A DNA stretch of 64,000 nucleotides. It comes from an uncultured bacterium (GTDB lineage Bacteria > Arandabacterota > Arandabacteria > Arandabacterales > Arandabacteraceae). Positions 2,284 to 39,001 of the stretch are shown piece by piece. Made by a program: the position numbers and the translations under genes. Every line of letters starts with the position of its first letter. The first letter of the stretch is position 1. The notes beneath the pieces are model-generated. The model was not told where the DNA came from and ran no database searches. It worked only from the letters and a program-made list of their open reading frames with translations. The stretch lies in NCBI GenBank assembly GCA_964598025.1, contig CAZRAU010000006.1:3600-67599 (forward strand). Reading direction: 5' to 3'.

Positions 2284-2309
2284 AATGAGGGCGGTCCCGG
2301 TACACCGGA

Positions 2310-4349: not shown

Positions 4350-4550
4350 GCCGCGCGGGCCGTCGGTCCTGCATTTCCGTATGGCATGAATGGTGTGGGC
4401 CGTGCCTTGGCAGGAAGGGAAAGCCTATGGGTGGGTATGCCCGTTGAAACAACGAAGAAGCATTACACGTCATCTATGTATGGATATCATCCTGGGAAGC
4501 AGTTGCCGCCAGGGTCACAGACCGGAGTAGCTCAACATTCGGAGGGGAAG

Positions 4551-7126: not shown

Positions 7127-7981
7127 CTACTCGTACATCGACTTGATGTTGCCCCAGGTGCTGGGCTGAGTCGCGGTAGGACCACCACAAATCAGGTAGA
7201 TCCTCCACGCCAACTCGATACCACCAAACTGGCTGCCATCCGGAGTCGTGTCACGGCCGTCCGTGAACATAAGCGGCGGCCAGTACTCGAATGCATAGGT
7301 CCCGATGAAACCACCATGGACCTTAGGCTCCGGTCCGCCACACCAGCCTCTGGGATAGAGAGCCGGCAGACAGCCATAGTCGTGCATGATACAACCGGTC
7401 TCGAGCCCGGTCGAAATGTTGTCCATACCCCATGCGGGATAAGTACCGTTCGGACCCGTGTGTGTGGCTGTTACGACGATCGACATATTGTTCGGACTGT
7501 AGCAGTCGGTCAGACACAGCGGGGGATCTACAAGGAAGTAGTTCCACGCATAGCCTGTCTCCAGAGGACCGCTGTTCCAGAGATGCGTCATCGGGGCAGC
7601 CGTACCGCAGCATTCCTCACCGGCACAGTACACGTCGAACTCGATCGTGAACAGGCCCGGATAAACCGTTCCGTAACCCGCGAAATCGAGGATACGGAGC
7701 TGCTCGAGCTCATGGCAGATCGCCGGATCGCAAGGAGCAGCGCCAGCGGTTCCCTCATCGCCGATGTTGAAGCACATGCCGATGATATCCCCGGGTGTCC
7801 AGCCAGTGTATGACCAGAACCAGGAATAGGTCGGGCAGGGAATGTAGTAGTAGTAGTTGAGCGTGCAATCATAAAGCGGCTCGGTGCCAAAGTCTTCCTT
7901 CATCTGGTAAGCCTTCTTCTCGAGGGCGAACGCAGATGTGGCAAGCACCAGCACCAACGCGAGTACTATACAAAGCCTCAT
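7127..7981 (-). CDS. Secreted Cys/aromatic-rich hypothetical protein with C-terminal TWGxIK motif
   Basis: AGGAGG RBS; signal peptide MRLCIVLALVLVLATSAFA; ends ATQPSTWGNIKSMYE. Confidence 0.85.
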   Translation of the reverse strand: MRLCIVLALVLVLATSAFALEKKAYQMKEDFGTEPLYDCTLNYYYYIPCPTYSWFWSYTGWTPGDIIGMCFNIGDEGTAGAAPCDPAICHELEQLRILDFAGYGTVYPGLFTIEFDVYCAGEECCGTAAPMTHLWNSGPLETGYAWNYFLVDPPLCLTDCYSPNNMSIVVTATHTGPNGTYPAWGMDNISTGLETGCIMHDYGCLPALYPRGWCGGPEPKVHGGFIGTYAFEYWPPLMFTDGRDTTPDGSQFGGIELAWRIYLICGGPTATQPSTWGNIKSMYE

Positions 7982-8133
7982 CAGAAAACCTCCTGTTTTT
8001 CGGGAGACCCTGGTCACGCAACAAAGTGGTCTCCTGAAGGTCGCAACTAGAAATTCCTCCCTGACTTCACCTCCCTTCGAGCGAACTATCGCTCGCCAAA
8101 GCTAGACCATTGGAGCTTCCCTCGACGAAACGC

Positions 8134-8163
8134 ATTATATCATAGTGTAATTCCCGCAGTCAA
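8134..8163 (-). promoter_or_regulatory. Sigma70-type promoter of the 7127-7981 gene
   Basis: Minus strand TTGACT-18 nt-TATAAT with TGn extended -10. Confidence 0.75.
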
Positions 8164-8579
8164 GCATTAATTTGAGTGTAAGACGACTATATCTCAACAT
8201 ATATGCCATATCCTCCGCCTATTACACACAACGTATTGGTGGCGCGGCATCACTATTTCATTGGCGGATAATGAGATATCGGCGCGCAATATAGGCAGGA
8301 CCGGATTCCGACATGTAGTGTCGGCCGCCCTTTCGATCTGGATTGGCCAAAGCCTATCCGGCTGTCTGTCGCTTGCGGGTTCTTGCAGTCTGCATGCGGC
8401 CCTTCGGACCAGGAGGGTCGGAATCGCCCCATGGAACCACTCATTCCTGTTGATCAAGCCGCGGTGCGAGTATAGACTGATGGCGTCAGGCCATAAGGAC
8501 GGTCAGGTGAAATCGTTGATAGCGGGCTTCGGTTGTGTCGCCGCGACTCTTCAAGATCGAATTCCGGAAAGGAGTGGCC

Positions 8580-10643
8580 ATGCCCGGACGGAACGCACGG
8601 AGAATGAGAGCCGAGGATCTATATGGGTTGAAGCTGGTAAGCGGGTGCGAATTATCGCCCGATGGACGCCACGTTGTGTACAGCCTTCAGCGCGTAGCCA
8701 AGCAAAGCGAGAAGAAGTACTCGAATCTCTGGGTGGTACCTGTTTCCAATGGGGCCCCAAGGCAGTTCACCTTCGGGGATCAGGCTGATAGCGAGCCCAA
8801 GTGGTCTCCGGACGGCGGGCGAATCGCTTTTCTGTCGAACAGGGAAGACGAGAAACAGGCCCAGATCCATATCATACCTTTTAACGGTGGTGAAGCCAGG
8901 CGTGTAACGGATTTCAAGGGTACGATCGGGGCATTCGCATGGTCTCCGGACGGCAAGCGGTTCGTGTGCCAGATTCGCAAGCAAGATGCAGATGAGATAG
9001 AGCGAGGGCGAGACGAGCGGAAGAAGAAGCTCGGCGTGGTGGCCCGGCACATAGAACGCGTGTTCTACAAGGAGGACGGCGTCGGTTTCCTCCCCAAGGA
9101 GCGATGGCACCTTTGGACGGTGGAGGCGGGAAGCGGCAGGCGCAAGCAGCTTACCGACGGCGAGATCCACGATGAGATCGAACCCGCCTGGTCGCCCGAC
9201 GGCAAAGGCATAGTCTTTGTCTCCAACCGGACCGAGGCACCCGATCTCGATCCCGATGCCATGGATCTTTTCATGATTCCGGCCGGCGGAGGGAAAGCGC
9301 GCAAGATCCCGACACCTGTCGGCCCGAAAGGGACACCCGTCTTCTCACCCGATGGCAGATCGATAGCCTATTTCGGAATCGAAGGCAGGGGCAAGTGGTG
9401 GAGAAACTCCAGCCTGTGGCTTGTGAACGTGGCCGGGAAATCAAAGGCCAGGAACCTCACGGCGAAATTCGACATCAACTGCACAAGCTGGACCATCAAC
9501 GATCTGCCCGGCAGTCCTGCAATGAAGCCGCCGGTCTTCGCCAAGGATGGTGCCCGGATCTATTTCCAGGTTGCCCGCCACGGCAACACGCATCTCTATT
9601 CGATCGCACCTTCAGGGGACAGGCGGAGTCTTGAAACAGTGATAGGAGACAAGGGGGTCGTAGGGGCCTACTCCTTCGACCGCGTGCGAGGAGACCTTGC
9701 CTATTTCCATGCCGACATGGCCTATCCTGGTGACATCTGGTTTCGGAATGCGGCCGGCGGGAGCCCGAAGCGACTCACCCATGTGAACCACCGAGTGCTT
9801 GGGAGTGTAGATCTTGGTGCGATCGAGGAGATCTGGATCAAGGGGCCTGCGGGTAACAGGATTCAGGGCTGGATCCTTAAGCCCCCCGGCTTCAGGCGGA
9901 CGCGCAAGTATCCGTCCATACTGGAAATCCATGGGGGGCCTCGGGTCCAGTATGGGAATTTCTTCATGCATGAGTTCTACTACCTGGCGGCGCAGGGATA
10001 CGTGATTCACTTCTGCAACCCGCGGGGGGGGCAGGGATACGGCGAAGCGCACTCGAAGGCCATCTGGAATGCCTGGGGCACGGCCGATTATGCCGATCTC
10101 ATGGCCTGGACCGACTACATCAAACGCAGACCTTACATAGATGGACGGAGAATGGGGGTAACCGGAGGAAGCTACGGCGGATATATGACCAACTGGATCA
10201 TAGGACATACCGACCGCTTCAAGGCGGCCGTCACCCAGCGGAGCGTGAGCAATTATATCAGTATGTGGGGATCGAGCGACTTCAACTGGGCGTTCCAAAT
10301 GGAGCTTGGAGGCAAGCCGCCCTGGGATGGTTTCGCCGACTACTGGCGCCAGTCTCCAATGAAATATATGGGGAGGGCCGTGACCCCGACCCTGGTGATC
10401 CACAGCGAACAGGATCTCCGGTGTGCCATAGAGCAAGGCGAGCAGGTATTCGTGGCGCTCAAGCGGCTGGGTGTGGACACTGAGATGGTGCGTTTTCCGG
10501 ATGAGCCTCACGGGCTTTCGCGGGGAGGCCGGACCGACCGGAGGGTGGAGAGACTCCGCCACATCCTGGGTTGGTTCGACCGGTATCTCAAGGAAGGCCG
10601 GGAAGGCCGATCCTCCGGAAAGCGACGGGAAAGCCGAAAATAG
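8580..10643 (+). CDS. S9 family peptidase (acylaminoacyl/dipeptidyl aminopeptidase) with WD40-like propeller
   Basis: Repeated WSPDG (PD40) motifs, EIHGGP, GGSYGG nucleophile, HSEQD and EPHG triad motifs; AAGGAG RBS before ATG 8580. Confidence 0.95.
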   Translation: MPGRNARRMRAEDLYGLKLVSGCELSPDGRHVVYSLQRVAKQSEKKYSNLWVVPVSNGAPRQFTFGDQADSEPKWSPDGGRIAFLSNREDEKQAQIHIIPFNGGEARRVTDFKGTIGAFAWSPDGKRFVCQIRKQDADEIERGRDERKKKLGVVARHIERVFYKEDGVGFLPKERWHLWTVEAGSGRRKQLTDGEIHDEIEPAWSPDGKGIVFVSNRTEAPDLDPDAMDLFMIPAGGGKARKIPTPVGPKGTPVFSPDGRSIAYFGIEGRGKWWRNSSLWLVNVAGKSKARNLTAKFDINCTSWTINDLPGSPAMKPPVFAKDGARIYFQVARHGNTHLYSIAPSGDRRSLETVIGDKGVVGAYSFDRVRGDLAYFHADMAYPGDIWFRNAAGGSPKRLTHVNHRVLGSVDLGAIEEIWIKGPAGNRIQGWILKPPGFRRTRKYPSILEIHGGPRVQYGNFFMHEFYYLAAQGYVIHFCNPRGGQGYGEAHSKAIWNAWGTADYADLMAWTDYIKRRPYIDGRRMGVTGGSYGGYMTNWIIGHTDRFKAAVTQRSVSNYISMWGSSDFNWAFQMELGGKPPWDGFADYWRQSPMKYMGRAVTPTLVIHSEQDLRCAIEQGEQVFVALKRLGVDTEMVRFPDEPHGLSRGGRTDRRVERLRHILGWFDRYLKEGREGRSSGKRRESRK

Positions 10644-10670
10644 GAGAGCATAACCGGAAGAGGTGGACAA

Positions 10671-11654
10671 ATGGCTGATCTTTCAACCGAATACATGGGG
10701 CTTCCACTGCGCAATCCCCTGATCGTTGCCAGCTCTGGCCTTACCAAGTCGGCTGACGGCGTCCGGAAATGCGCAGACGCCGGCGCCGGGGCGGTCGTGC
10801 TCAAGTCGCTCTTCGAAGAGCAGGTCGCGGTCAAGGCCAAAGACATGGAAGAGCACCTGTGGCTATACGGTCACACCGAGGCCTTCGAGTACGTCAGCAA
10901 GATGGCCATGCCCCTTGGTCCTCGGGACTATCTCAGGCTCATTGAAGAGGCAAAGGCCGGGGTCTCCGTTCCTGTCATAGCGAGTCTCAATTGCATAACC
11001 CCTCGATGGTGGGTGGATTTCGCAAGCCAGATTGAAGCGGCCGGAGCCGATGGTCTCGAGCTTAATATCTCGGTGATGCCAAGCGACCCGGCCCGCACGA
11101 GCGAAGAGATAGAGAACATCTATGTTGATATCGTGGAATCTCTCAGGGGCCGTGTCCGGATCCCGATCGCCGTCAAGATGGGGCCCTATTTCACCTCCGT
11201 TGCCCGGATGGCTGCGGAGGTGTCGAGGTGCGGGGTCTCCGCGCTGGTGTTTTTCAACCGCTTCTATCAGGTCGACATAGACATCGAGAAGGTCGACATG
11301 GCACCCGGGATTCACCTCAGCTCGCCCGGTGAGATAAGTCTCCCTCTCCGTTGGATTGCCCTTCTGGCCGGGAGCCTGGAGTGCGATCTGGCCGCATCAA
11401 CCGGGGTGCACGACGGTGCGGGGTTTGTCAAGCAGCTGCTTGCCGGCGCCACGGCGGTGCAGGTATGCTCGGCGCTCTATGACAAGGGAATCGAACATAT
11501 CGGTACCATGCTCGGGGACGTCGAGGCCTGGATGCAAGGGCACGGCTTCGAGAAGGTCGGGGATTTCAGGGGCAAGCTCAGCCGGCAGGCGACAGAGCGT
11601 CCGGAGCTCTATGAAAGACTGCAATACATAAAGCTCTTTGTAGGCATCGAATAG
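10671..11654 (+). CDS. Dihydroorotate dehydrogenase-like flavoprotein
   Basis: LSTEYMGLPLRNPLIVASS, VVLKSLFEEQ, PIAVKMGPY, FNRFYQ, STGVHDG, ATAVQVCS. Confidence 0.88.
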   Translation: MADLSTEYMGLPLRNPLIVASSGLTKSADGVRKCADAGAGAVVLKSLFEEQVAVKAKDMEEHLWLYGHTEAFEYVSKMAMPLGPRDYLRLIEEAKAGVSVPVIASLNCITPRWWVDFASQIEAAGADGLELNISVMPSDPARTSEEIENIYVDIVESLRGRVRIPIAVKMGPYFTSVARMAAEVSRCGVSALVFFNRFYQVDIDIEKVDMAPGIHLSSPGEISLPLRWIALLAGSLECDLAASTGVHDGAGFVKQLLAGATAVQVCSALYDKGIEHIGTMLGDVEAWMQGHGFEKVGDFRGKLSRQATERPELYERLQYIKLFVGIE

Positions 11655-11812
11655 GGTCCGCCCCTCCAGTGGCCGACGGGTTCTGCCGCGCTCGCCGTCC
11701 GCTCGCCGTTCAGGCTCACATTCGCCGCAAAGCCACTCTTTTGGTTTAAGTCAGGCTCCCGCCGGGCCGTTCACATGGGGAGAGGGTGTGATTCCAAGAG
11801 AAGGGGGAACAA

Positions 11813-12367
11813 ATGGTATTTCTAATAGTGGTCGGCATCGTGGCGGCGCTCTTCGTAGGCGTCTATAACAGTCTGATTCGCAAGAAGAACCAGGTCAAGA
11901 ACATCTTCGCAACAGTGGATGCCATCCTCAAGAAACGGTACGATCTCATACCCAATCTTGTGGCTACCGCCCAGAAGTACATGGAGCACGAACAGCATGT
12001 TCTGACCGAGGTGACCAGGCTCAGAGCGAAGGCGCTCTCCGGTGATGCATCCGATGACGAGAAGATAGAGATAGACAGCCAGATGTCCAAGGCCATCCGG
12101 GGTATTCTGGTTGCGGTGGAGAACTACCCGGGCCTGAGGGCGAATGAGAATTTCATGCACATTCAGGCCACGCTCACCGAGGTCGAGGAGCAGATCTCGG
12201 CCGCTAGGCGGGCATACAATGCTACGGTCACCGATTACAATAATGCGGTTGAGATGTTTCCCACCAGCATAGTGGCGAAGCTCTTCGACTTTAACTGCAG
12301 GCACCTGTTCGAGATCGAGGTGGCGGAAAGAGAGACTGCGGACGTTCACGCGCTTTTCCAGAGGTAG
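11813..12367 (+). CDS. lemA: LemA family protein
   Basis: N-terminal TM, YNSL, KRYDLIPNLV, ENYPGLRANENF, RRAYNATV, FPTSIVA. Confidence 0.95.
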   Translation: MVFLIVVGIVAALFVGVYNSLIRKKNQVKNIFATVDAILKKRYDLIPNLVATAQKYMEHEQHVLTEVTRLRAKALSGDASDDEKIEIDSQMSKAIRGILVAVENYPGLRANENFMHIQATLTEVEEQISAARRAYNATVTDYNNAVEMFPTSIVAKLFDFNCRHLFEIEVAERETADVHALFQR

Positions 12368-12388
12368 AACGTTACGCCGGATCGAGCC

Positions 12389-13384
12389 ATGATAAGCAGG
12401 ACCGCCTCGGATTTCGCCCATTTCTTCGTCACCGATCTCGTCAAGGAGCTCAAGCGGCTCGAGGTCAGGCGAAGGACCATTCTTGGTAGGGTGAAGATAC
12501 TGATCGCGGTCACAGCCGGCGTTGTCGGGGTAAGTGTCGCGGTCGTTGTCGCATTCGGGCTCGGCATGACCCCCGTCTTCGTGACCGGTGTGATTTGCAT
12601 CGGCGGGGCATCGGCGCTGTATAAGTATCTCATTTCGGATTATGTTCGTGACTTCAAGACAAGCGTCATAGGAAGAATCGTGCGGTTCATAGATCCGGAT
12701 CTGGTCTATTGCGCCGAAGGGCATATCTCGCCGGTTGAGTTCAATTCCGGCAGGATATTCACGCAACGGCCCGACCGGATGCGCGGGGACGATCTGGTCC
12801 AGGGTAAGATAGGGCACACCAATATCAGGTTCTCGGAGGTTCACGCCGAGCGCAGGACCCAGAGCACCGACGGCCAAGGACACCGGCGTGAACGCTACAG
12901 CACGATCTTCAAAGGTCTATTCTTCAAAGCCGATTTCAACAAGAAGTTCTATGGGAGGACAGTCGTGCTTCCCGATAGCGCCGAGCGGCTTTTCGGCAGC
13001 GTGGGCTCTTTCCTCCAGTCGGTCAACAGGTCGCGCGGCGAGGTCATACGGATGGACAATCCGGAGTTTGAGAGATACTTCGTGGTCTATGGTGACGACC
13101 AAATAGAATCCAGATATGTTCTGTCCACCAGCCTGATGCAGCGAATCTTGGATTTCAGGCAGAAGACCGGCAGGCGGGTCTATATGTCTTTTGTGGACTC
13201 TGATGTCTTCGTGGCAATCCCCTATAAGAGGCCGCTCTTCGAACCAAGCATCTTCTCCAAACTTACGAGCTTCAAGGGAGCACACGAGCACTTCGAAGAT
13301 CTCGCTCTCGCCCTGGGAATCGTGGACGACCTCAACCTCAATACAAGAATCTGGGTTGGGGTGGGGTCAGATCTTGAAAATTGA
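12389..13384 (+). CDS. DUF3137-like membrane-anchored protein
   Basis: Two N-terminal TM helices; FKGLFFKADFNKKF, DNPEFERYFVVYGDDQIESRYVLS, DDLNLNTRIW; usual lemA neighbour. Confidence 0.85.
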   Translation: MISRTASDFAHFFVTDLVKELKRLEVRRRTILGRVKILIAVTAGVVGVSVAVVVAFGLGMTPVFVTGVICIGGASALYKYLISDYVRDFKTSVIGRIVRFIDPDLVYCAEGHISPVEFNSGRIFTQRPDRMRGDDLVQGKIGHTNIRFSEVHAERRTQSTDGQGHRRERYSTIFKGLFFKADFNKKFYGRTVVLPDSAERLFGSVGSFLQSVNRSRGEVIRMDNPEFERYFVVYGDDQIESRYVLSTSLMQRILDFRQKTGRRVYMSFVDSDVFVAIPYKRPLFEPSIFSKLTSFKGAHEHFEDLALALGIVDDLNLNTRIWVGVGSDLEN

Positions 13385-13406
13385 ATTCGATTCTCAAGAT
13401 CTGACC
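13365..13406. repeat. 42-bp near-perfect palindrome (REP-like or terminator) overlapping the DUF3137 stop codon
   Basis: GGTCAGATCTTGA...TCAAGATCTGACC, centred on GAATTC. Confidence 0.8.
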
Positions 13407-13411
13407 TCGGG

Positions 13412-13440
13412 TTGACACGGGGGCGCCCTGTGGCTAATCT
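13412..13440 (+). promoter_or_regulatory. Sigma70-type promoter for hflX
   Basis: TTGACA-17 nt-TAATCT. Confidence 0.65.
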
Positions 13441-13552
13441 TCCATTCGGGATGTTGTCCGGGGGGAGTGGATGAAGGGTGCGCGGGGGCTTCCATCTAAG
13501 AAGCTGGGCGGGTGAGAAGGAAGGCCGGGTGGCCGTGGGAAGGAGCTTAGGT

Positions 13553-14827
13553 TTGGCGGAACGTGAAAGGGTGTTGTTGGTGGGCCTGGTTCGGGGGCGG
13601 GGGGGGCGGAAGGAGGCCGAGGAGTCGATAGAGGAGTTGGCCTCGCTTGCCGAGACGGCGGGCGCTGAGGTGATTGATGCCGTGCTGCAGGAGAGGCGCC
13701 ATCCGGACACAGCGACGTTTGTGGGGAAGGGCAAGGCTGAGGAGATTGCTGCAATATCCGAAGACCGGAACATAGCCCTCGTTGTTCTGGACGATGACCT
13801 TAGCCCTGCCCAGGCCAGGAATCTCGAGGAACTTGTCGGCCGGCGAGTCATCGACAGAAGCCAGCTCATCCTCGACATATTCGCGCTGGGGGCAAGGACC
13901 AGCGTTGCGAAGGCCCAGGTGGAGCTTGCCCAGATCGAATACACCCTGCCCAGGCTTCGGCGTATGTGGGAGCATCTGTCGCGGACAGGGGGCGGCATCG
14001 GGACCAGAGGCCCGGGTGAGACCCAGCTCGAGGTCGACAGAAGGCGCATCCGGCGCCGCATGTTCACCCTGAAGAAGATGCTTGAAAAAGTCGAGAGAGA
14101 CCGTCAGGTTCGCACGGCCCGCAGGAAGGACTTCGCGAAGGTAAGCCTCGTCGGCTATACCAATACGGGCAAGTCCACTCTCTTTAACAATCTCACGCAG
14201 GCGGGGGTCTCCACGGGCGACCGGCTTTTCGAAACCCTGGATGCCACCACCCGGATGTTGCGGCTTCCGATGAATGAGGTTGTGCTTCTGAGCGATACCG
14301 TGGGGTTTATAAAGAAGATCCCGCATGATCTTGTGGCTTCCTTCCATGCGACGCTGGAATGCGTGGTGGAAGCCGACATCGTGGTTCAAGTGGCCGACCT
14401 GAGCTACCGGGACTATGATAGCCAGATCGCGACGGTAAGGTCTGTACTCGAGGAAATCGGGGCGGCAGGCAAGCAAGAGTTGCTGGTCTTCAATAAGGTG
14501 GATCTCGTTGAGGGCGACGATGCCATCGCGCTGGCGCTTCGCAAGTATGAGGACGCGATTCCGGCCAGCGCTCTGTACGGATGGGGAGCCGATGCCGTCA
14601 AGGAGCGCTTGCTCACCCTCGTGCTCGACAAGAAGGAACAGGTCCGGGTCAGCCTTCCGCCTCAGAAAGGCAAGCTGCTCTCTTACATACACCAATATGC
14701 CACTGTTCTCGACCGCGAGATGGTCGACGGCAAGGTCTCGCTTCTGATAAGGATCGAGCGCCGGTATATGAAACCGCTGGCGGAATACGTGGAGCCGGGC
14801 GGATCTCAAACGGAAGCGCCGCATTGA
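13553..14827 (+). CDS. hflX: Ribosome-splitting GTPase HflX
   Basis: GTRGPGETQLEVDRR, G1 GYTNTGKST, LFETLDATTR, DTVGFI, NKVD; start TTG 13553 chosen from AGGAG RBS (ORF open from 13478). Confidence 0.95.
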   Translation: MAERERVLLVGLVRGRGGRKEAEESIEELASLAETAGAEVIDAVLQERRHPDTATFVGKGKAEEIAAISEDRNIALVVLDDDLSPAQARNLEELVGRRVIDRSQLILDIFALGARTSVAKAQVELAQIEYTLPRLRRMWEHLSRTGGGIGTRGPGETQLEVDRRRIRRRMFTLKKMLEKVERDRQVRTARRKDFAKVSLVGYTNTGKSTLFNNLTQAGVSTGDRLFETLDATTRMLRLPMNEVVLLSDTVGFIKKIPHDLVASFHATLECVVEADIVVQVADLSYRDYDSQIATVRSVLEEIGAAGKQELLVFNKVDLVEGDDAIALALRKYEDAIPASALYGWGADAVKERLLTLVLDKKEQVRVSLPPQKGKLLSYIHQYATVLDREMVDGKVSLLIRIERRYMKPLAEYVEPGGSQTEAPH

Positions 14828-15720
14828 GTCCGCTCTCCTCAGCAGCACTTGTCACCGGGGCCAGCGGTTCGCTGGGGTGGGTGCTCAGCCGTATGCTGGC
14901 CGACCGCTCTCCGGTCATCGCCGCATACCACACCCATGCCGCCTATCCCGATGGGACCAGGGGTACTGAGTTGAACCTGGGCGAGGCCGGAGCCCTTGGA
15001 CGTCTGCTCGAGACGCACCGGCCCCGGATCGTATTCCACCTGGCTGCAGTTACGAATCCGGATCAATGTGAACGGGATCCGGAAACCGCGCGGAGAGTGA
15101 ATCTTGAGGCGACCAGAGAATTGGCCCTGTGGGCGGCCGCCTCAGGGGCGAAGCTGGTGTTTGCATCCACCGACCTGGTCTTTGACGGTAAGAAGGGCAA
15201 CTACGGCGAAGAGGATCCAGCGGTCCCGTTGAGCGTTTATGGCAGGACGAAGCTCGAGGCAGAGCGGGCCGTGCTCGAAGTATGTCCAGGTGCTGCGGTG
15301 ATTAGAGGTTCGCTCTTCTACGGGCTGGGTGGTCCGGCCGGCCGGACCTTCCTCTCAAGTATTCTGGATGCGCTCTCAAGGGGTGCGGCCATCCGGCTCT
15401 TCACCGATCAAAGGCGGAACCCGGTTCTGCTGGAGGATCTTGCAGGGGCGATGATCAGAGTTGCGGATCTTGATCTTGTGGGCCTCTACCATGTGGCGGG
15501 GAGGGACGTGGTGACACGCTATGAGTTCGGTAAGATGGTGTGTACGGCTTTCGGTTTTAGCAAGAATCTGCTTATCCCGATAAGCATGGCTGATTTTGAG
15601 TATGATGCTCCCCGCCCGCTGGATTCCTCCCTGAATATCGCCAAGTTCGCGAGCGCTACCGGTCTTGAGCCTACGCCGGTGGTGTTGGCTCTGGCAAGCC
15701 TCGCATCCAGGCGTCTTTGA
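14824..15720 (+). CDS. rfbD: dTDP-4-dehydrorhamnose reductase-like SDR
   Basis: LVTGASGSLG, HLAAVTNPD, STDLVFDG, YGRTK, FTDQRRNP, PRPLDSSL; TTG overlaps hflX stop. Confidence 0.85.
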   Translation: MSPLSSAALVTGASGSLGWVLSRMLADRSPVIAAYHTHAAYPDGTRGTELNLGEAGALGRLLETHRPRIVFHLAAVTNPDQCERDPETARRVNLEATRELALWAAASGAKLVFASTDLVFDGKKGNYGEEDPAVPLSVYGRTKLEAERAVLEVCPGAAVIRGSLFYGLGGPAGRTFLSSILDALSRGAAIRLFTDQRRNPVLLEDLAGAMIRVADLDLVGLYHVAGRDVVTRYEFGKMVCTAFGFSKNLLIPISMADFEYDAPRPLDSSLNIAKFASATGLEPTPVVLALASLASRRL

Positions 15721-15732
15721 CCGGCCCGACCC

Positions 15733-16092
15733 TTATTCTATAGTTATCTGAATCAGGCCGTCATCGGACTCGATGTCCACAATCTTCCCGATATTTTCGG
15801 AGGTCACCTGCGACAGGACCTCATCTATATCCACGCCTTCCTCAATGAGTTCCCTTTTCTTCTTGGGCGGTATGAACTTGGCCGCTATTTTCGCCAGGCC
15901 CAGAGGGATACGAAGGTTCACCTTCTTCTTGTTGGTGCCGGGCTCGGTCACTTGGATCCGGAGCATCTTGCGCCCCCTGGATTTCTCGCTTCCCGGCGTC
16001 TCGTTGAGGGTATCGAGGAGCCTCGCCGCCTCCTCGGCGGTCACCTTGCCTTCCTCGAGCATCTTCAGAATCTGCATTCTCTCATCCCACAT
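15733..16092 (-). CDS. SHOCT-like domain protein (DUF2089 partner)
   Basis: ERMQILKMLEEGKVTAEEAARLLDTL; KKVNLRIPLGL. Confidence 0.85.
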   Translation of the reverse strand: MWDERMQILKMLEEGKVTAEEAARLLDTLNETPGSEKSRGRKMLRIQVTEPGTNKKKVNLRIPLGLAKIAAKFIPPKKKRELIEEGVDIDEVLSQVTSENIGKIVDIESDDGLIQITIE

Positions 16093-16095
16093 CTC

Positions 16096-16479
16096 TCAGG
16101 CCTCCTTCGGTTCTACTCCCAGCTCAGCCACTGCCTCATCCACGCTGATCTCGCCCTTTCTCAGCCGCTCGAACACCTCCAGCCTGTGGACGGCCGGCGA
16201 TTCGCCGCCTGCATCCAGGCCCAGGCTGATAAGCAGCTCGTCCAGACGCTTTCTCACCGTGGGGTAGGAAATACCGAGGTCCTTCTCGACTTCCTTGATA
16301 TTGCCCCGTGCCTTGAGAAAAGCCCACAGAAAAGCAAGGGCGTCCGAAGGCAGATTGCAGAAGGGGCAGGTCTTAAGATCACTCACGATCCTGGTGCTGC
16401 ACGATGGACAAGTGAGCTCGGTGACCCTAAGCCGGGTCTCGCAGATAGGACACTTGCCAATTGCGGTCTTGCGTTTCAT
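16096..16479 (-). CDS. DUF2089 zinc-ribbon/HTH protein
   Basis: CPIC...CPSC, FLKARGNIKEVEKDLGISYPTVRKRLD; GGAGG RBS before ATG 16479. Confidence 0.9.
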   Translation of the reverse strand: MKRKTAIGKCPICETRLRVTELTCPSCSTRIVSDLKTCPFCNLPSDALAFLWAFLKARGNIKEVEKDLGISYPTVRKRLDELLISLGLDAGGESPAVHRLEVFERLRKGEISVDEAVAELGVEPKEA

Positions 16480-16498
16480 ATCCTGCCTCCTTGTTGAC

Positions 16499-16556
16499 AA
16501 TGTATTGATCATGATTGAGTATGTCAACCGTATAATTAATAAACTCAATCATCATC
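16499..16556 (-). promoter_or_regulatory. DUF2089 operon promoter with an inverted pair of 14-bp boxes
   Basis: Minus strand TTGACA-17-TACATT; ACTCAATCAT(G/C)ATC at 16507-16520 (-) and 16543-16556 (+). Confidence 0.65.
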
Positions 16557-16645
16557 TTGATAAAAGTGAAGAGTATGATAAGCTTGACAAGGTGTGTACA
16601 AAGCCGCTATGTTGCATGGGGCTCAGCAGGAGGAACAGGAACACT

Positions 16646-17782
16646 ATGGGTGACAAGTTCTCGCGGGCAAGACGGCTCTTCGAAGTGCAGAGGAAACATG
16701 TCTATCTGAACCATGCGGCGATCTCCCCATTCTCGGCGCCCGTGGCAGGCGCCATCAAGAAACAGGCGGACGAACAGGCGGCTCATGGTGTCTGCGCCGA
16801 GGTCCTGTGGGATGAAAGGGCGGAGGGGGCTCGCCTCGAAGCAGCCAGGCTGCTTAATGCAAAGCCTGCGGAAATAGCGTTCGTAGGTAATACCAGTCAC
16901 GGGCTCAATCTCTTTGCGCGGGGGATGAGGTGGAAGAAAGGTGACAACGTGGTGCTCCCCAAGGTGGAGTTCCCCGCCAACGTATATCCGTGGTTATCGC
17001 TTAAGGAGAAGGGGGTGCGGCTCAAGTTCGTGCCCGAGCGGAACGGCCGGATCCGCATCGAGGATATTGAGGAGGCCATGGACAGGCGGACGCGGGTAGT
17101 GGCCATAAGTTTCGTCGAGTTCTCGAGTGGTTACCGCAATGACCTGAGAACGATCGGGAAGCTCTGCCGTGAGCGGGGATGTCGCCTTGTGGTGGATGGG
17201 ATTCAAGGGGTAGGCGCTCTCAGGTTGGACGTCAAGCACTGTCTCATAGACGGACTCTCATGCGGCGGGCACAAGTGGCTCCTGGCTCCGCAGGGTACAG
17301 GGATATTCTATTGCTCGTCGCGCGTCCTAGGGGAGTTGTCGCATCCGATGCCGGGTTGGATGTCGGTCGTGGATTGGGGGGACTACTACCGGTTCGATTA
17401 TAAGCTCTTCCCCGACAGCCGCAGGTACGAATCGGCCCAGAAGAACTATCTCGGCATTACCGGCCTCCTCGAATCGCTGAAGATAATCAACCGGCTGGGC
17501 ATCTCCGATATCGAGAAGCGGATCATCGCTCTGACCGATCATCTGTGTGACCTGCTGGAGAAGCGGGGATTCCAGGTCTTCAGCCCCCGCGGGAGAGGTG
17601 AGAAATCCGGCATCGTGTCCTTTTTCCCCGGCGGCTGGGAGGCGGAGGTGGTTGCGGAGAGACTGTGGCGGAAGGGTTTCATCACGGTGGCCAGACAGGG
17701 CCGGATGAGGGTCTCACCCCACTTCTATAACACCTTTGGTGAAGTCGAGCGCTTCGTGAAGGCGCTGCCCCGGCCAACATAG
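16646..17782 (+). CDS. PLP-dependent aminotransferase class V (cysteine desulfurase-like)
   Basis: YLNHAAISP, EFPANVYPW, VDGIQGVG, GGHKWLLAPQGTG, RVSPHFYN; ATG 16646 after AGGAGG/AGGA; promoter TTGACA-18-TATGTT at 16584-16613. Confidence 0.9.
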   Translation: MGDKFSRARRLFEVQRKHVYLNHAAISPFSAPVAGAIKKQADEQAAHGVCAEVLWDERAEGARLEAARLLNAKPAEIAFVGNTSHGLNLFARGMRWKKGDNVVLPKVEFPANVYPWLSLKEKGVRLKFVPERNGRIRIEDIEEAMDRRTRVVAISFVEFSSGYRNDLRTIGKLCRERGCRLVVDGIQGVGALRLDVKHCLIDGLSCGGHKWLLAPQGTGIFYCSSRVLGELSHPMPGWMSVVDWGDYYRFDYKLFPDSRRYESAQKNYLGITGLLESLKIINRLGISDIEKRIIALTDHLCDLLEKRGFQVFSPRGRGEKSGIVSFFPGGWEAEVVAERLWRKGFITVARQGRMRVSPHFYNTFGEVERFVKALPRPT

Positions 17783-17857
17783 GCCGTGGAGGCCCCGTCG
17801 GGCGCGGAACCCCGATGCTGCGAAGGTGAGCTTGTGATATCGGTTGCCGGCGGTTTC

Positions 17858-19711
17858 CTACTGGGTGTAGCCTACGGAGCGGAGCTCGCGTTCGGTTTCC
17901 TCGTCAAGATTTATAGCGGATGCTTCCTGGTATTGTGATCGCTGCAGCCACAGCAAATAGTAAGGGCCGTCGGGGCGGCCGGCCGGGTTGCCGAGCTCGG
18001 TGGTTTCGCTCTCCGGGGGTGGGGCTTTCTCCGTAAAGGGCATTATCATCGGCTGTGCCAGGGTCTCGCCGATAAAGACGCGCCGGACCGCCGGGTGACC
18101 GTCGATCTTGAGATCGAATTCGATGGGAGCCTCAGTCTGCATCAGTTTGAATGCAAGGATGAGGGGTTCCTTTGCCTCCAAGTCTCGAATTTCGATCACC
18201 GAAGGTTCGATCGCGGCCGTGCCGACAGCGCCCGTTCTGAAGATGCTGCCTCTGCTGTCGATCATCTTGTGAAACCGGAAATGCCCGGCGCCACGTGCAG
18301 CTTCAGAGGTAACACGGAGGTCAAAAATGTGGGGCTCGTCTCCCCCCGCTATTTCCAAGAACCAGGTGTCGGAGATATTAAGCAGAGTTCTGTAGAGCGT
18401 CTGCTCCAGCAGGTCGAGGGATTCGATGGGTTCGCGGGAAAGGTCGGTGATCTCACCGGGATCCTCGGCCAAGTTGAAGCAAGCGATCTCGTCCTTATTG
18501 ATGTTATAGATCAGCTTCCAGGGAAACGCGGACAGGCTTGTTCGCTCGTCACCGTAGAGAGTCGCCTCGGACAAAGCGATCTCAGGAGGAAGAAGGGATG
18601 CCCCGGCCTGAGCCGGCCTCCCGCTGCCGGCAATCAAGGGTAATACACTTACGCCTTCAGGTTCGCCCCAGGGTGTAATGCCCAGCATCTCGAGAATTGT
18701 CGGCTGAACATCCAGTAACCTGATCTGCCGGGCTATTCTGCTTCCCTCAGGCAGCACATCGGGAAGAGAAAGCACCACGGGGACCTTTATGAGCTCGTCA
18801 TAGAGCGAATGGCCGTGCTCGAAACCGTGGTGTTCGAAGAACTCCTCGCCATGGTCGCTTAAGAAAACGATCAAGGTGTTGTCCGTGAGACCACGCTCAT
18901 CGAGTCCCCTCAAAAGATTCCCCACCGCCTCATCCATAAAGGCGATCTCGCCGTCATAGAGCGACCTGATGCGGTTCCAGTCGGCGTCCGAAAGGGATTC
19001 CATCTGCGCGAATTCCTCATCCCTGAACTTGGGGAGCTCCTTGGGGTTATAAGGGCTCTTGATCGTGCCGGTGTATTCCGGGTCGAAGATGGAGTCAAAC
19101 GGCGCCGGGGGGTCATATGGTATATGGGGATCAAAATAGTGTGCAAACATGAAGAAGGGCCGGTCGCTGTTCTCCTCTATCCACGCCAGGGCATCCCTGG
19201 TTGTGCCATCGGCGGCCCTGCCCTCGGGTGGTGTCATGTAGTAGAAATCGAACCCTCGGGCCACCCCGTGATGTCCTTTGAGATAGGGCGCGTTGACAAC
19301 GGCTCCGGTTGCATAGCCGTTTGCCTGAAGGAGTGCCGCAAGCGTGGGTATGTTCTCCCTCAAGGCTTTCCGGGAGCCGTTGGCCCCGTGTTGGGTGGGG
19401 TAAAGCGACGTGAAGACTGTGGCAAAAGACGGGAGTGTCCACGGAGACGGGGCCACCACATTCTCGAACAAGACCCCTCCCGCAGCAAGTTCATCGATAT
19501 TGGGACTGGTATTGCGCTCATAGCCGTAACAGCCCAGGTGGTCGCGTCTCAGCGTGTCCACGCCTATCAGCACAAGGTTCGGCCGGGGCTTTCCCTCACC
19601 GCATGCGAGACAAAGGCAAAGGCCCGGAAGCAGACACAGACGCAGGCCGAGCCTCAGCCCCGGTTTCAATCTCACTTGCAGGCCACCTTGTCCAGAGCGG
19701 AATGTCATCAT
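17858..19711 (-). CDS. Sulfatase-like hydrolase/transferase, probable lipoprotein, with extra C-terminal domain
   Basis: LIGVDTLRRDHLG, SPWTLPS, HYFDPH, YDGEI, SDHGE, HGHSLY, VPV; ends ELRSVGY; LACG lipobox. Confidence 0.88.
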   Translation of the reverse strand: MMTFRSGQGGLQVRLKPGLRLGLRLCLLPGLCLCLACGEGKPRPNLVLIGVDTLRRDHLGCYGYERNTSPNIDELAAGGVLFENVVAPSPWTLPSFATVFTSLYPTQHGANGSRKALRENIPTLAALLQANGYATGAVVNAPYLKGHHGVARGFDFYYMTPPEGRAADGTTRDALAWIEENSDRPFFMFAHYFDPHIPYDPPAPFDSIFDPEYTGTIKSPYNPKELPKFRDEEFAQMESLSDADWNRIRSLYDGEIAFMDEAVGNLLRGLDERGLTDNTLIVFLSDHGEEFFEHHGFEHGHSLYDELIKVPVVLSLPDVLPEGSRIARQIRLLDVQPTILEMLGITPWGEPEGVSVLPLIAGSGRPAQAGASLLPPEIALSEATLYGDERTSLSAFPWKLIYNINKDEIACFNLAEDPGEITDLSREPIESLDLLEQTLYRTLLNISDTWFLEIAGGDEPHIFDLRVTSEAARGAGHFRFHKMIDSRGSIFRTGAVGTAAIEPSVIEIRDLEAKEPLILAFKLMQTEAPIEFDLKIDGHPAVRRVFIGETLAQPMIMPFTEKAPPPESETTELGNPAGRPDGPYYLLWLQRSQYQEASAINLDEETERELRSVGYTQ

Positions 19712-19766
19712 CTCACCAACCCTAGAATATATTGTATGCCGCCCGTCTTCACACCCCTTTTTTGGC

Positions 19767-19795
19767 TTGACTTCCGCACAGGCCTGGGGTAGGCT
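19767..19795 (+). promoter_or_regulatory. Sigma70-type promoter of the LTD protein gene
   Basis: TTGACT-17 nt-TAGGCT. Confidence 0.6.
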
Positions 19796-19900
19796 CCTTA
19801 ACGGACCTCGGGGAAAGGAGGTGATGATGCGGAAGTGAGAGGTTCAACAACTGAATAAAGAGGGCTTGAGTAGCAAAGCAAGTGATGGGAGGTTGTGGAT

Positions 19901-21307
19901 ATGCGGTACGCTTTGCATTTTTGTATGTTGGCCCTCCTTGTAGCCTCCGCAGTATTCCCCTCGGCATCGGATGCCGGCCTTGCGATCAACGAATTCCTTC
20001 CCGCCCCGGGAAGTGATTGGGATGGTGATGCCGATGCCGACTCCAAGAAAGATGAATGGGCCGAAGTTGTGAACTCGGGCTCATCATCGCTGGACCTTAG
20101 CGGGTATCTCTTGCTCAACGGAACCGACAGGCGGCCGGTATATGGTTTCTCGGGGAGCCTGGGGCCCGGAGAGTTTGCGGCCGTCTATGGAAGTGAGGCC
20201 TCGGCCTGGGAGAGTGAGACCGGCCACTCTTCGATCGGGTTGAGCCTGAATAACAGTGGTGATATGCTCTGGCTTGTTTCCGTCTCAACAGGCGACACGG
20301 TGGTCGTTGATTCGGTCTCATATGCTTCAGGGGCCGTAGGCTACGATGTCTCGGTGGGACGCTTGCAGGACGGTACCGGTCCCTGGGCCCTCTATGACCA
20401 CTTCTTGCCCAAGGGCGGAACCGACGGTGACCCCACTCCTGGGGCGTCCAACTCCTCGGATCCACCGCCCCATATCTTCCGGGTTGCGCGGGATCCGTTG
20501 TACCCGACCTCGGCCGACAGCACCACAATGACGGTCGAGGCAGGCAGTGCATCGGGCATCCTCCAGGTCCTTCTGGCGTATGACATAAACCTGGAAGACG
20601 GGGAAGAACCGGTGATGGACCTGGTCTCAGGGGCGTCGGATCTGGGCACTTGGGCATACACCATCCTGCCGTGCGCGGCGGGTGACACTGTCCACTATCG
20701 GTTCTCAGTTCTTGGGCTTGCTTCATCGACCATCACGCCCTGGATGGGCTATCGGGTAAGGAGCGGGAGCCTCCAAGTGAGGCTCAACGAGATTCTGGCA
20801 GACCCGCCCGCGGACCTTGAAGGTGATGCCAACAGGGACGGTGCGCGCGATGCGGCCGACGACGAATTCATAGAGATCGTCAACTGCGGCGCGACGGAGG
20901 TGGACCTGTGCGGCTGGAGTCTGACCGATGCGACCTCGGTGAGACACGTCTTCTCCGATTCGGCTTCGGTTCTGGCTTCCGGCGAGTTTGTGACCGTTTT
21001 CGGCGGTGGTGCACCGACGGGCTTTGTAGGAAAGGTGTTCACCGCTTCAAGCGGAGGCCTCGGTCTGGCCAACAGTGGGGATGTCGTCTATCTCCTGGAT
21101 GATACCGGAGCGCTCGTCGATGTCCACTCCTATGGGGGCGAGGGGGGCGATGATGAGGCGATGCTAAGGTACCCGGACTGTGGGGATACCTGGATGTTGT
21201 GTTCCGAGGCGGGCCTGGATGCCGCCTTCACGCCGCAGGAGCCCAACGCCCCCCAAAGTGCGGTGTCCGGGACCACCTGGGGCAACATAAAGTCCTTGTT
21301 CAGGTAA
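19901..21307 (+). CDS. Secreted protein with two lamin-tail (LTD)-like domains and C-terminal TWGxIK motif
   Basis: Signal peptide; INEFL...DEWAEVVN and LNEILAD...DEFIEIVN repeats, LNNSGD/LANSGD, PTPG; ends SGTTWGNIKSLFR. Confidence 0.88.
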   Translation: MRYALHFCMLALLVASAVFPSASDAGLAINEFLPAPGSDWDGDADADSKKDEWAEVVNSGSSSLDLSGYLLLNGTDRRPVYGFSGSLGPGEFAAVYGSEASAWESETGHSSIGLSLNNSGDMLWLVSVSTGDTVVVDSVSYASGAVGYDVSVGRLQDGTGPWALYDHFLPKGGTDGDPTPGASNSSDPPPHIFRVARDPLYPTSADSTTMTVEAGSASGILQVLLAYDINLEDGEEPVMDLVSGASDLGTWAYTILPCAAGDTVHYRFSVLGLASSTITPWMGYRVRSGSLQVRLNEILADPPADLEGDANRDGARDAADDEFIEIVNCGATEVDLCGWSLTDATSVRHVFSDSASVLASGEFVTVFGGGAPTGFVGKVFTASSGGLGLANSGDVVYLLDDTGALVDVHSYGGEGGDDEAMLRYPDCGDTWMLCSEAGLDAAFTPQEPNAPQSAVSGTTWGNIKSLFR

Positions 21308-23149: not shown

Positions 23150-23374
23150 TCACATGGCACCTCTCCACACCTGCGGGGATTCAGGCGGCTTCGGTTCCGG
23201 CTGCTCGTCCTGAGCGGGCTCTGCCGCAGTTTCAACACTAATGGGCTCTGCCGTGAGGACCATTTCCACCTCGGCCGGCCGCAATGACCTGACGACCGAC
23301 GAAATGAAGAGGTAGGACACCACGACCAGAGCGATGATGACCAGATATCCTCTGAAAGAGCTGCTCCTGCTCAT
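23150..23374 (-). CDS. Small single-TM hypothetical protein at the end of the pilin operon
   Basis: GGAGG RBS; 4-nt overlap with upstream stop; TM followed by Pro/Glu-rich tail. Confidence 0.6.
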   Translation of the reverse strand: MSRSSSFRGYLVIIALVVVSYLFISSVVRSLRPAEVEMVLTAEPISVETAAEPAQDEQPEPKPPESPQVWRGAM

Positions 23375-24996
23375 ACCTCCCTCCAGACTGTAGTATGCGG
23401 TACCGGCCTATCTATCTTGAACACAGAGGTGAGCGGGTAATATGGGGGTTCGAGGCCTCTACGGTCGTAGCTGAAGTGCCTTCCGTATCCTGTACTGGAA
23501 CCATAACTTGTGAATGTTCCAAAAGCGCCGTAGTACCGCTGCACGGCGCCGCCTCGCAGATGTACCTGGCCCCTGTAGCCACCGTGATTGTAATTGTCCA
23601 CTTTGAAAGCGCCGTCTTCGCCGGCCGCAAACACGAATGCATCGATCATCAGCTCGTTGGGTGCCGATGTGGTTATCCTGACATCACCCCCGGAGGAGTA
23701 AAGCCCGAGAATCCCGACCCCGTTCTCGATATCCTCGTAGACAATATCGCTCTCTACAAGTATGTCGTCCTCGGCGGTGACGGTCACCTGGGTATCTTCT
23801 TCTATGGTCGGGACCGGAGCGCCGCTCACCCTTGGCCCTCCTCCGACCTGTTGCATGCTCCCGGTGCCGTATATCATCCCTCGGGGTAGACCCGCATAGA
23901 ACGTGGAATCCGTGCCGGCATAAACCTTGGTTCGGTTGTTTTTCTTATCGAGGACCACTGTCTTTGTGGTGCCGTTGTCATGGATCAGCAGGTAGTTCTG
24001 GAATCCATCAGCATCGATTGAGAACTTGAGCTTGTCCAGATCGCCGACCACGTATATGCCGCCTTTGACGGACGTGGTGTCGTTCGGCACGTAGATCCCC
24101 TCAGGGATGGGCGCGGGATCGAGCGGATCCAACCCTAGCGCTGTCTTCCTCTGGGCAGTTGAGAGTTCCGCGGTATTCGTCGCTGAGTAACCGAGCGCCG
24201 CCCTCTCCTGACTGAAGGAGTTCTCAGGCAAAGCGATCTCGTCGACACCTCGGTCGAAGCCCCCATAAAAATTGGGCACATCCCGGTCTCCATTTCGGTC
24301 CGCATTGAGGTTTATGGGGTGGCCGTTATTGTAATAGGATGCCGTCAGAGGTACGGATGTCACAAGATCCTCGAAGGTCGGGAAGTAGGCGAACCTCAGT
24401 CTCCCGTTACTGTGCACACGACCGTCGAAGTAGCCGGTCGTGTGGAACCAGATCTCGGAGCCTTCCGGCGTATAGTGAACATCTGTGAATACCAGATAGT
24501 CGGCGAACGAGCCTCGGGACGCGCTGAGTCTGAGGACGCCCTTGGATACTATGTTGCTGCTGCCGCCGAGGAATGAGTTTCCCGTCGCAACCGAGACATA
24601 GTTGTAGTTAAATGTCTGGCTGGTCGAAATGAGCATGCTGTCGGCGAACTCGAACGTGGTGACTGCCCCGAAACCAAGATCATCGCTTTCATAGCTCAGC
24701 CCCCCGGAGGGAAAGAAATCAAGGGGGTCGGTTATTATCGGTCCGGTTCCGGACCAGACGCCCATCAAGCTCTCCATCCTGGCCTGGCTGAAGTCGGTCA
24801 TCTGTTGTTTGGCCACCTCGACGGCTGAATCGCAGCTATAAAGGGCCTGCTTCGCGACTCTGTCGTTAAGCGTTATGCCCTTCTCCGTAACGGACAGGCT
24901 TACGATGGCCACGACCATGCCGGAGATGAGCATGGTGAGGACGAGCGCGATGACGAGCGCGGTGCCCGATTCCCCTTTGAGTACTGAGTGTCCCAT
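23371..24996 (-). CDS. PilX-like minor pilin with large DUF4900-like C-terminal domain
   Basis: GESG|TALVIALVLTML, KQALYSCDSAVE PilX-N motif; FDGRVHSNG, LRGGAVQRYYG, RHFSYDRR. Confidence 0.85.
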   Translation of the reverse strand: MGHSVLKGESGTALVIALVLTMLISGMVVAIVSLSVTEKGITLNDRVAKQALYSCDSAVEVAKQQMTDFSQARMESLMGVWSGTGPIITDPLDFFPSGGLSYESDDLGFGAVTTFEFADSMLISTSQTFNYNYVSVATGNSFLGGSSNIVSKGVLRLSASRGSFADYLVFTDVHYTPEGSEIWFHTTGYFDGRVHSNGRLRFAYFPTFEDLVTSVPLTASYYNNGHPINLNADRNGDRDVPNFYGGFDRGVDEIALPENSFSQERAALGYSATNTAELSTAQRKTALGLDPLDPAPIPEGIYVPNDTTSVKGGIYVVGDLDKLKFSIDADGFQNYLLIHDNGTTKTVVLDKKNNRTKVYAGTDSTFYAGLPRGMIYGTGSMQQVGGGPRVSGAPVPTIEEDTQVTVTAEDDILVESDIVYEDIENGVGILGLYSSGGDVRITTSAPNELMIDAFVFAAGEDGAFKVDNYNHGGYRGQVHLRGGAVQRYYGAFGTFTSYGSSTGYGRHFSYDRRGLEPPYYPLTSVFKIDRPVPHTTVWREV

Positions 24997-24997
24997 T

Positions 24998-33317: not shown

Positions 33318-33327
33318 GAGGGATTGC

Positions 33328-38851: not shown

Positions 38852-39001
38852 TCACCGTTTGTGTAGCGCAGGGATTCCACCCCCGACGGCGACCTGCCGC
38901 CCCATCGGTACAAGGTGGAAATGGCGAGCCAAGTGTGGTATACTATAGCCACGACAGTAGACGATTATCTGCCGGCGGGCTTCTTAATGAAAGGAATGAC
39001 C

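Follow-up and report, generated by a model that had tools for sequence, protein, structure and literature searches.

A short C-terminal peptide module on exported proteins of Eisenbacteria and related uncultured phyla, apparently undescribed and proposed as a protein-sorting signal

In a 64,000-nucleotide stretch of DNA from an uncultured bacterium of the Arandabacterota (contig CAZRAU010000006.1 of assembly GCA_964598025.1, positions 3,600 to 67,599, forward strand; hereafter called the “window”), two unrelated exported proteins, carrier 1 and carrier 2, end in the same short peptide. This tail is a unit of about 18 residues—hereafter called the “tag”—and it recurs at the extreme C-terminus of many other unrelated proteins with signal peptides in Eisenbacteria and related uncultured phyla. 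The tag is most likely a sorting or surface-docking signal. With a probability of about 0.5, we interpret it as a sorting tag that would act after Sec export, in parallel to the C-terminal domain (CTD) of the type IX secretion system (T9SS). By its sequence features and predicted structure, it belongs neither to the T9SS CTD class nor to the CTERM class of sorting domains, and it is an apparently undescribed, putative C-terminal protein-sorting signal.

The carrier 1 gene (7127..7981, minus strand; stop codon 7127-7129) lies in the open reading frame (ORF) 7127..8017(-), in which the ATG at 7981 is the most plausible start. It encodes a 284-residue exported, Cys-rich beta-sandwich protein with the C-terminus ...GGPTATQPSTWGNIKSMYE. 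Its signal peptide, MRLCIVLALVLVLATSAFA (7925..7981, minus strand), is predicted to be cleaved after AFA and before LEKK, and its tag unit is PTATQPSTWGNIKSMYE (7130..7180, minus strand). The carrier 2 gene (19901..21307, plus strand; stop codon 21305-21307) starts at the ATG at 19901 in the ORF 19895..21307(+), and encodes a 468-residue exported protein with two lamin-tail domains (LTD) and the C-terminus ...SAVSGTTWGNIKSLFR. Its signal peptide, MRYALHFCMLALLVASAVFPSASDA (19901..19975, plus strand), is followed by GL, and its tag unit is QSAVSGTTWGNIKSLFR (21254..21304, plus strand). Both signal peptides were assigned by eye, and are conserved among the homologues. Both carriers terminate in TWGNIKS[ML][YF]x.

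In a BLASTP comparison of the two carriers, the alignment is confined to the last 16 residues, and the profile-profile alignment of their families is confined to the last 24 columns (E=2.4e-6). The motif WG.[IVLM]K occurs three times in the six frames of the window; two of these occurrences are those of carriers 1 and 2, each exactly nine residues from the stop of a long ORF. At the DNA level, the WGxIK pattern gave two matches in the window, as compared to 0.13 expected from shuffles; the G+C content is about 57-58% throughout. These results confirm that the tail common to both carriers is real and far beyond chance.

Beyond the tail, the two proteins have nothing in common. Carrier 1 gave no family in Pfam or NCBIfam, and the fold search against the PDB gave no significant match (best E=0.02). 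Its 593 homologues are about 285 residues long, and one is labelled Candidatus Eisenbacteria. The AlphaFold2 (AF2) model, calculated with the family alignment, has a mean predicted local distance difference test score (pLDDT) of 82.6 and a beta-rich, confident core at residues ~40-265. In relatives, this family often comes as two tandem paralogues (locus L055, 3596-5433; locus L102, 335-2257); the window holds a single copy. Carrier 2 matches the Pfam family LTD (PF00932, E=4.4e-29) in two stretches, and has 264 homologues and an AF2 model with a mean pLDDT of 86.9. The syntenic region of its orthologue in GCA_029933125.1 comprises a sulfatase, the LTD protein, a nitroreductase, a thiamine-BP-like gene, pseudopilins and DUF72.

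The consensus of the tag unit is P-[TV]-[PA]-[VT]-E-x-[ST]-[ST]-W-G-x-I-K-[AS]-[LM]-[YF]-[RK], usually followed by 0-2 more residues. We aligned the tags of one representative per carrier cluster (57 clusters), using the Trp residue as the anchor. Upstream of this Trp, the alignment has G or C at position -9, P at -8 (22/57), T, V or S at -7, P or A at -6 (39/57), V or T at -5 (44/57), E at -4 (31/57), S or T at -2, and T or S at -1, and positions 0 to +8 read W-G-x-I-K-[AS]-[LM]-Y-R. A sequence-only reading of this DNA had described the residues before the core as a Ser/Thr/Ala linker; they are actually the conserved first half of the unit, from the Pro at -8 to the [ST] pair. The search pattern used to collect the carriers fixes T, W, G, I, K and Y, and the invariance of these residues in the 57-cluster alignment is thus partly a matter of construction. 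The two independent alignments of the carrier 1 family (W276, K280 and Y283 invariant) and the carrier 2 family (W460 and K464 invariant) also show W and K without variation, and G, I and Y with hardly any. Among the carrier 1 homologues, the form [ST]W[GS]x[IV]K[SAR][MIL]Y[ERK] stands at the extreme C-terminus in all 120 of those listed from the 593. In the carrier 2 family, the tail is retained down to 39% identity, with variants such as SWARVKALYRD.

How widespread is the tag? We scanned the DNA of one genome per GTDB species with the pattern ACNTGGGGNNNNATHAARNNNNTGTAY (TWGxIKx[LMV]Y), deliberately without a stop-codon constraint, and found at least 119 loci with at least 126 matches. Of the 126 matches listed, 106 lie 0-3 residues before a stop codon and 111 lie 0-6 residues from it. 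The distance from the Tyr to the terminus varies accordingly between 0 and 6 residues, and in 83 cases exactly one residue, usually Arg, follows the Tyr. The 111 C-terminal matches listed are labelled Eisenbacteria (29), Krumholzibacteriota (13), Latescibacterota (5), Gemmatimonadota (5) and Fermentibacteria (2), in addition to 54 metagenome-assembled genomes (MAGs) named only “bacterium” and three odd bins. Of the 15 non-C-terminal matches listed, almost all belong to unrelated taxa, such as Lachnospiraceae, Haemophilus, Veillonella and Mucilaginibacter, and many lie in ORFs that are very short; they can be taken to illustrate how chance matches look. When the core motif was relaxed in the 96 true loci (622 kb), it was found 82 times at a C-terminus and never internally.

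About 17 further carriers that had not been seeded by the pattern lie in the related loci, corresponding to roughly one per 35 kb, similar to the two per 64 kb in the window. This density suggests tens to more than 100 carriers per genome, as a rough extrapolation biased by the clustering of carriers. Several MAGs have at least three to six carriers within the sampled loci alone (for example, CBDVBX01, JAPEKQ01, JASFEA01 and CAWHYG01), and carriers often stand in tandem runs, such as four consecutive genes in L126 and four in L020. Complete or nearly complete assemblies bearing the tag include OY969801.1, OY970178.1, OZ244990.1 (Eisenbacteria), CP070677.1, CP070631.1 (Latescibacterota), OY970370.1 (Fermentibacteria), CP070727.1 and GCA_029933125.1.

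A few matches have unexpected labels. Typical tag units occur on contigs binned as Woesearchaeota (L083), Verrucomicrobiota (L119), Patescibacteria (L063) and a beta-proteobacterium (L124), and in the last two the frame continues past the motif; these are probably misbinned contigs or frameshifts, and not signs of a broader range of hosts. Two IMG/VR contigs likewise carry genes with a typical unit at the end: L006 (IMGVR_UViG_3300010391_000416; ~7669-7807, minus strand; ...CEPTPVESKTWGTIKQLYRR before the stop) and L007 (12449-12952, minus strand; ...AVPVGATTWGRIKTMYR before the stop). L006 also encodes a phage portal protein (phrog_12, 1.9e-54), and a phage of tag-bearing bacteria may therefore use the tag of its host; L007 has little viral signal.

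The cargo of the tag is diverse. After trimming of the signal peptide and the tail, 102 carriers fell into 58 BLASTP clusters, and the 120 carriers that include relaxed matches fell into 57. Their Pfam domains comprise beta-helix, NHL, LTD, PMP repeats, DUF11, Laminin_G_3, Big_5, a PD40 propeller and cupredoxin, and the majority of carriers match no family. One carrier at first resembled TolB, which would have spoken for a place in the periplasm, but it proved to be only the PD40 propeller, far below the TolB cutoff. Signal-peptide-like N-termini are present in 60 of the 69 complete carriers, as compared to 105 of the 331 complete non-carrier ORFs in the same loci (Fisher p=9e-18). The earlier proposal of a shared tail on two non-homologous signal-peptide proteins is thus borne out, with only the last 16-24 residues in common. 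Neither of the two refuting conditions named in that proposal holds: the tail is enriched at the C-termini of proteins with signal peptides, and it lies outside any shared folded domain. Its restriction to uncultured phyla related to the Fibrobacterota-Chlorobiota-Bacteroidota (FCB) group has held, by the labels of the matches listed.

Could the tail nevertheless be no signal at all? It might be a chance similarity, a DNA or RNA element located where genes end, or the final structural element of a domain that the carriers share. The shortness of the motif would agree with this, as would the nearly identical codons of the two copies in the window (ACCTGGGGCAACAT[CA]AAGTC). Across genomes, however, the synonymous codons are all used, including four Thr, four Gly and several Arg codons, as are all three stop codons. 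The synonymous sites are free to vary, and selection therefore acts on the peptide, and not on a nucleic-acid element. A shared fold is contradicted by the AF2 models, neither of which integrates the tail. In carrier 1, the linker and tail have pLDDT<50 at residues 271-274 and 280-284, with a detached helix at 276-283; in carrier 2, residues 452-459 have pLDDT<50, followed by a detached helix at 460-467. The helices span exactly WGxIKxx[YF] in both models, at low confidence, and in both predicted structures the tail is detached from the fold, behind a disordered linker. Chance is contradicted by the excess of matches in the window, by the 57 unrelated clusters, and by the off-lineage, non-C-terminal character of the stray matches. 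This reading is extremely improbable, and we regard it as effectively refuted.

We next consider the long CTD that the same genomes employ. Proteins that have a long FlgD_ig/Por_Secre_tail-type domain at their end are abundant in the tag-bearing genomes. The window itself encodes a contrasting case: a papain-family (C1) protease of 850 residues (38915..41467, plus strand; Peptidase_C1 2.3e-45), which ends in a long FlgD_ig/T9SS-like CTD (...GVYFVRLDTEAGGRTSKVVLAR). Its residues 785-838 match FlgD_ig (7.3e-07), and it matches, with E=1.3e-25, a hidden Markov model (HMM) built from 20 CTDs of genes neighbouring the carriers. This protease shows that the short tag and the predicted long CTD coexist in the window's genome. 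At a cutoff of E<0.01, the CTD HMM detected 20 of the 417 non-carrier neighbouring ORFs (19 of them strongly) and none of the 120 carriers (p=0.011). The two C-terminal modules also replace each other on related proteins. Distant LTD homologues of carrier 2 that come from Bacteroidota have PF18962 at the C-terminus, and one homologue has PF13860 there; carrier 2 itself is similar to an Eisenbacteria protein that bears a CTD. In two loci, the gene immediately after a tail gene is a paralogue that ends in the long CTD (L042, 1359-2015 and 2019-3506; L071, 3496-4212 and 4263-6011), with 29% identity over ~200 residues in these pairs. As judged from the sequences, mutual exclusivity and swapping with the long CTD are the behaviour that alternative sorting modules would display, and they are the strongest indirect evidence that the tag is a sorting signal. 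Related passenger domains, including those of neighbouring paralogues, thus receive one or the other of two putative C-terminal signals within a single cell; what, then, separates the two destinations? The L042 and L071 pairs are natural test pairs for what distinguishes the two routes.

Based on these observations, we propose the following mechanism. The tag would be an autonomous peptide module of ~18 residues that Eisenbacteria and related uncultured phyla append to many Sec-exported proteins with no other relationship. Following Sec export and removal of the signal peptide, the exposed, unfolded tail would be recognised by a conserved protein receptor. This receptor would then pass the cargo from the periplasm onward to the outer membrane, the cell surface or the medium. 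The tail would thereby play the role that the 70-100-residue T9SS CTD plays for other cargo in the same genomes. We infer the status as a sorting signal, the destination at the surface or outside, and the dedicated receptor; the secretion or surface-attachment role suggested by the sequence-only reading is supported by the position, the cargo and the export statistics, and secretion or attachment as such belongs to this inferred part.

How does the tag compare with the known systems? Like the tag, the T9SS CTD occupies the extreme C-terminus of unrelated Sec-exported cargo, in many copies per genome and in FCB-related lineages, and it takes the same position on homologous passenger domains. 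Both have a Lys near the end and tolerate a few extra C-terminal residues (for the CTD, PMC11285876; in the tag, the Lys does not vary and the Tyr may have 0-6 residues after it), a resemblance that we take as a lead and that does not indicate homology. The T9SS CTD is a compact, Ig-like, seven-stranded (3+4) beta-sandwich of ~70-100 residues (PMC11285876); a passage of the same paper cites a report that places the targeting signal of HBP35 in the last 22 residues of its CTD. In contrast, the tag has only ~18 residues and no such sandwich, as the AF2 models contain a disordered linker and an eight-residue helix. There is no Pfam match to PF18962 or PF13860 on either window carrier, no homology to the long CTD is detectable with the HMM described above, and the W-G-x-I-K-x-L-Y signature is unrelated to the CTD motifs.

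The tripartite CTERM domains (LPXTG, PEP-CTERM/exosortase, GlyGly-CTERM/rhombosortase, PGF-CTERM and MYXO-CTERM) resemble the tag in being small C-terminal homology domains with a nearly invariant signature. Some passenger families are even identical to those that carry CTERM anchors elsewhere: the NCBIfam matches of the carriers include choice-of-anchor V and J, ScyF and PepA (PEP-CTERM), ExeM (GlyGly-CTERM) and an MYXO-CTERM family. Haft listed seven attributes of the small CTERM sorting domains (bioRxiv 10.1101/2023.06.07.544157). The tag shows five of the seven (attributes 1, 2, 3, 6 and 7), namely the location near the C-terminus, multiple instances per genome, an invariant signature, signal peptides, and carriers that are otherwise unrelated. 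It lacks the other two, the transmembrane helix and the basic cluster of 2-5 residues. Within the last 25 residues of the 120 carriers, no apolar run exceeds 8 residues (median 4), which leaves no room for a transmembrane helix, and the last five residues contain on average 1.6 K or R, typically a single terminal Arg and no Arg cluster. Therefore, the tag cannot be retained in the inner membrane, where an intramembrane sorting protease would act on it. The earlier parallel to T9SS CTDs and PEP-CTERM thus stands as a functional analogy, while the defining structural features of both are missing from the tag.

The β-signal of outer-membrane proteins, the last strand of the beta-barrel, has a terminal aromatic residue and alternating hydrophobic residues. 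Like this signal, which is recognised by BAM, the tag is short, contains an aromatic residue and stands at the very end of proteins exported by diderm bacteria. The terminal residue of the tag is, however, R, K, E or Q in most carriers, its hydrophobic residues lie at -2, -3, -6 and -9 and do not alternate, and its cargo consists of soluble beta-sandwich, beta-helix or propeller proteins, and not barrels. No model in NCBIfam (June 2026) or Pfam covers the tag, and our literature searches (motif spellings, Eisenbacteria secretion, T9SS in Gemmatimonadetes/Latescibacteria, and CTERM domains) found no description of it.

Several points weigh against a post-Sec sorting tag. No receptor or translocon gene is linked to the carriers; the only recurrent neighbours are CTD proteins and heterogeneous TPR proteins. 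There is no credible C-terminal instance from Bacteroidota among the matches listed and, if the T9SS is involved, its recognition of the tag must therefore be lineage-specific. We found no cultured carrier, and the homologues on long contigs are all from MAGs. The sample of carriers was seeded by a pattern with six fixed residues, and the signal peptides behind the export statistics were called by one crude heuristic, applied to carriers and non-carriers alike. Finally, a signal for translocation that is used only once does not predict the tandem and internal tag units described below, which fit better with a binding peptide, rare as they are.

These units were found by an exhaustive search of 1.84 billion representatives with the tail profile. 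Owing to the shortness of the motif, the search gave only 12 matches at E<=0.001. It sums scores, so that proteins with several copies are favoured, and it is unfit for estimating prevalence. Four tandem tag units stand at the end of P0255 and two at that of P0262, while P0254 has a decaying series. P0256-P0260 consist of a repeated “domain + tail” with one internal copy left, and P0264 has a copy near the N-terminus. Several of these multi-copy proteins have lipoprotein-type N-termini. For P0254, a partial match to DUF4440 stayed below the threshold (E=0.002; 18.9 bits, with the cutoff at 25.2 bits), and the others have no Pfam family. Two further matches were discarded: P0263 matched only the linker of the profile's first sequence, as the profile kept all 30 columns, and P0261 is a chance repeat.

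Because of these multi-copy units, we keep as a strong rival the possibility that the tag takes no part in crossing the outer membrane and is a docking or anchoring peptide, that is, a non-covalent ligand of a scaffold, an outer-membrane protein or an envelope polymer, in the style of dockerin and cohesin. We consider this possible, at well below even odds. Tandem amplification and internal units would be in keeping with binding by avidity, and the fixed spacing of the invariant W, G and K points to a specific pocket on a protein. In both AF2 models, the tail forms a short helix behind a flexible linker, and the multi-copy carriers with lipoprotein-type N-termini would be anchored in a membrane already. 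A dockerin is a folded, duplicated module of ~60-70 residues that binds Ca. Like the tag, the dockerin is a portable and usually C-terminal module on a flexible linker, which brings diverse exported proteins to a common partner and occasionally occurs in more than one copy; the tag differs in being a linear peptide of ~18 residues for which no cohesin-like partner was found. Against docking, the multi-copy proteins are rare, as reflected by the absence of internal copies beside the 82 C-terminal ones in the locus sample, and they are the kind of protein that summed profile scoring favours. The exclusivity and interchange with a domain known for secretion plus anchoring point at least equally to export. 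An amphipathic helix, which only the low-confidence AF2 helices favoured, has no statistical support (hydrophobic moment against permutations, p=0.15). Moreover, no candidate scaffold with repeated receptor domains was found, and the sole lead is a faint Cohesin match: in L128, a relative of the window, a 1003-residue protein (1468-4479, plus strand) is encoded two genes upstream of the LTD carrier, with faint Cohesin, Por_Secre_tail and FlgD_ig matches. We regard it as a weak lead for a scaffold-type partner.

Alternatively, the tail might mark periplasmic proteins for a C-terminal-specific protease or chaperone, in maturation, zymogen control or quality control. Such a tag for processing or turnover would be consistent with a C-terminal tail exposed on an unfolded linker, and the conserved P-x-P-V-E upstream of the core could be a cleavage site. 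The window also encodes several envelope peptidases (S49, S9 and M28), though none of them is linked to carriers elsewhere. A single turnover tag for tens to more than 100 unrelated cargo proteins per genome, by the rough extrapolation above, would nevertheless be unusual. The variable distance of 0-6 residues between the motif and the terminus is unlike the recognition of a free carboxylate by PDZ-type tail-specific proteases, and a processing tag leaves the replacement by secretion CTDs on homologous passengers unexplained. We therefore consider this explanation improbable.

Where, then, is the machinery for a post-Sec sorting tag? The sequence-only reading had identified none in the window; no T9SS core component was recognisable among the window's scanned ORFs, nor is there one next to the carriers. 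The flanks of multi-carrier clusters contain nothing recurrent. An apparent family of carrier neighbours at seven loci proved to be just a mixed set of TPR proteins, including several kinase-STAND-TPR proteins of the cytoplasm.

Some other genes in the window were noted as well. A pilin/pseudopilin-like cluster (23371-25864, minus strand) comprises PilX_N + DUF4900 and a neighbour with a prepilin-type N-terminus, and no link to the tag was found; the syntenic region in L128 has GspH and N_methyl genes and a 979-residue pseudopilin-like protein. A LemA - DUF3137 gene pair lies at 11813-13384 (plus strand), and a DUF6754 membrane protein (E=6.7e-119), followed by a 228-residue membrane protein without a family, is encoded at 32010-34014 (plus strand).

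C-terminal sorting signals, such as LPXTG, PEP-CTERM and the T9SS CTD, have repeatedly led to new envelope machineries. The tag has the bioinformatic hallmarks of a sorting signal without either known architecture, and it is common in phyla for which we found no cultured carrier and which have almost no functional annotation. It may, as a tentative and rather doubtful extension, belong to a previously unrecognised post-Sec pathway of Eisenbacteria, Krumholzibacteriota, Latescibacterota, Fermentibacteria and their allies, with its own receptor or translocon, running parallel to the T9SS-type CTD route and serving on the order of 100 cargo proteins per genome. If so, the tag would be the smallest known linear signal that routes proteins to or across the bacterial outer membrane. 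Provided that its 18 residues work as a linear signal, they could be used as a compact, portable targeting tag. For the organisms themselves, the tag offers a means of predicting the exported or surface proteome, most of its carriers being annotated as “hypothetical proteins”, and it provides a sharp query for phylogenetic profiling toward the cognate receptor.

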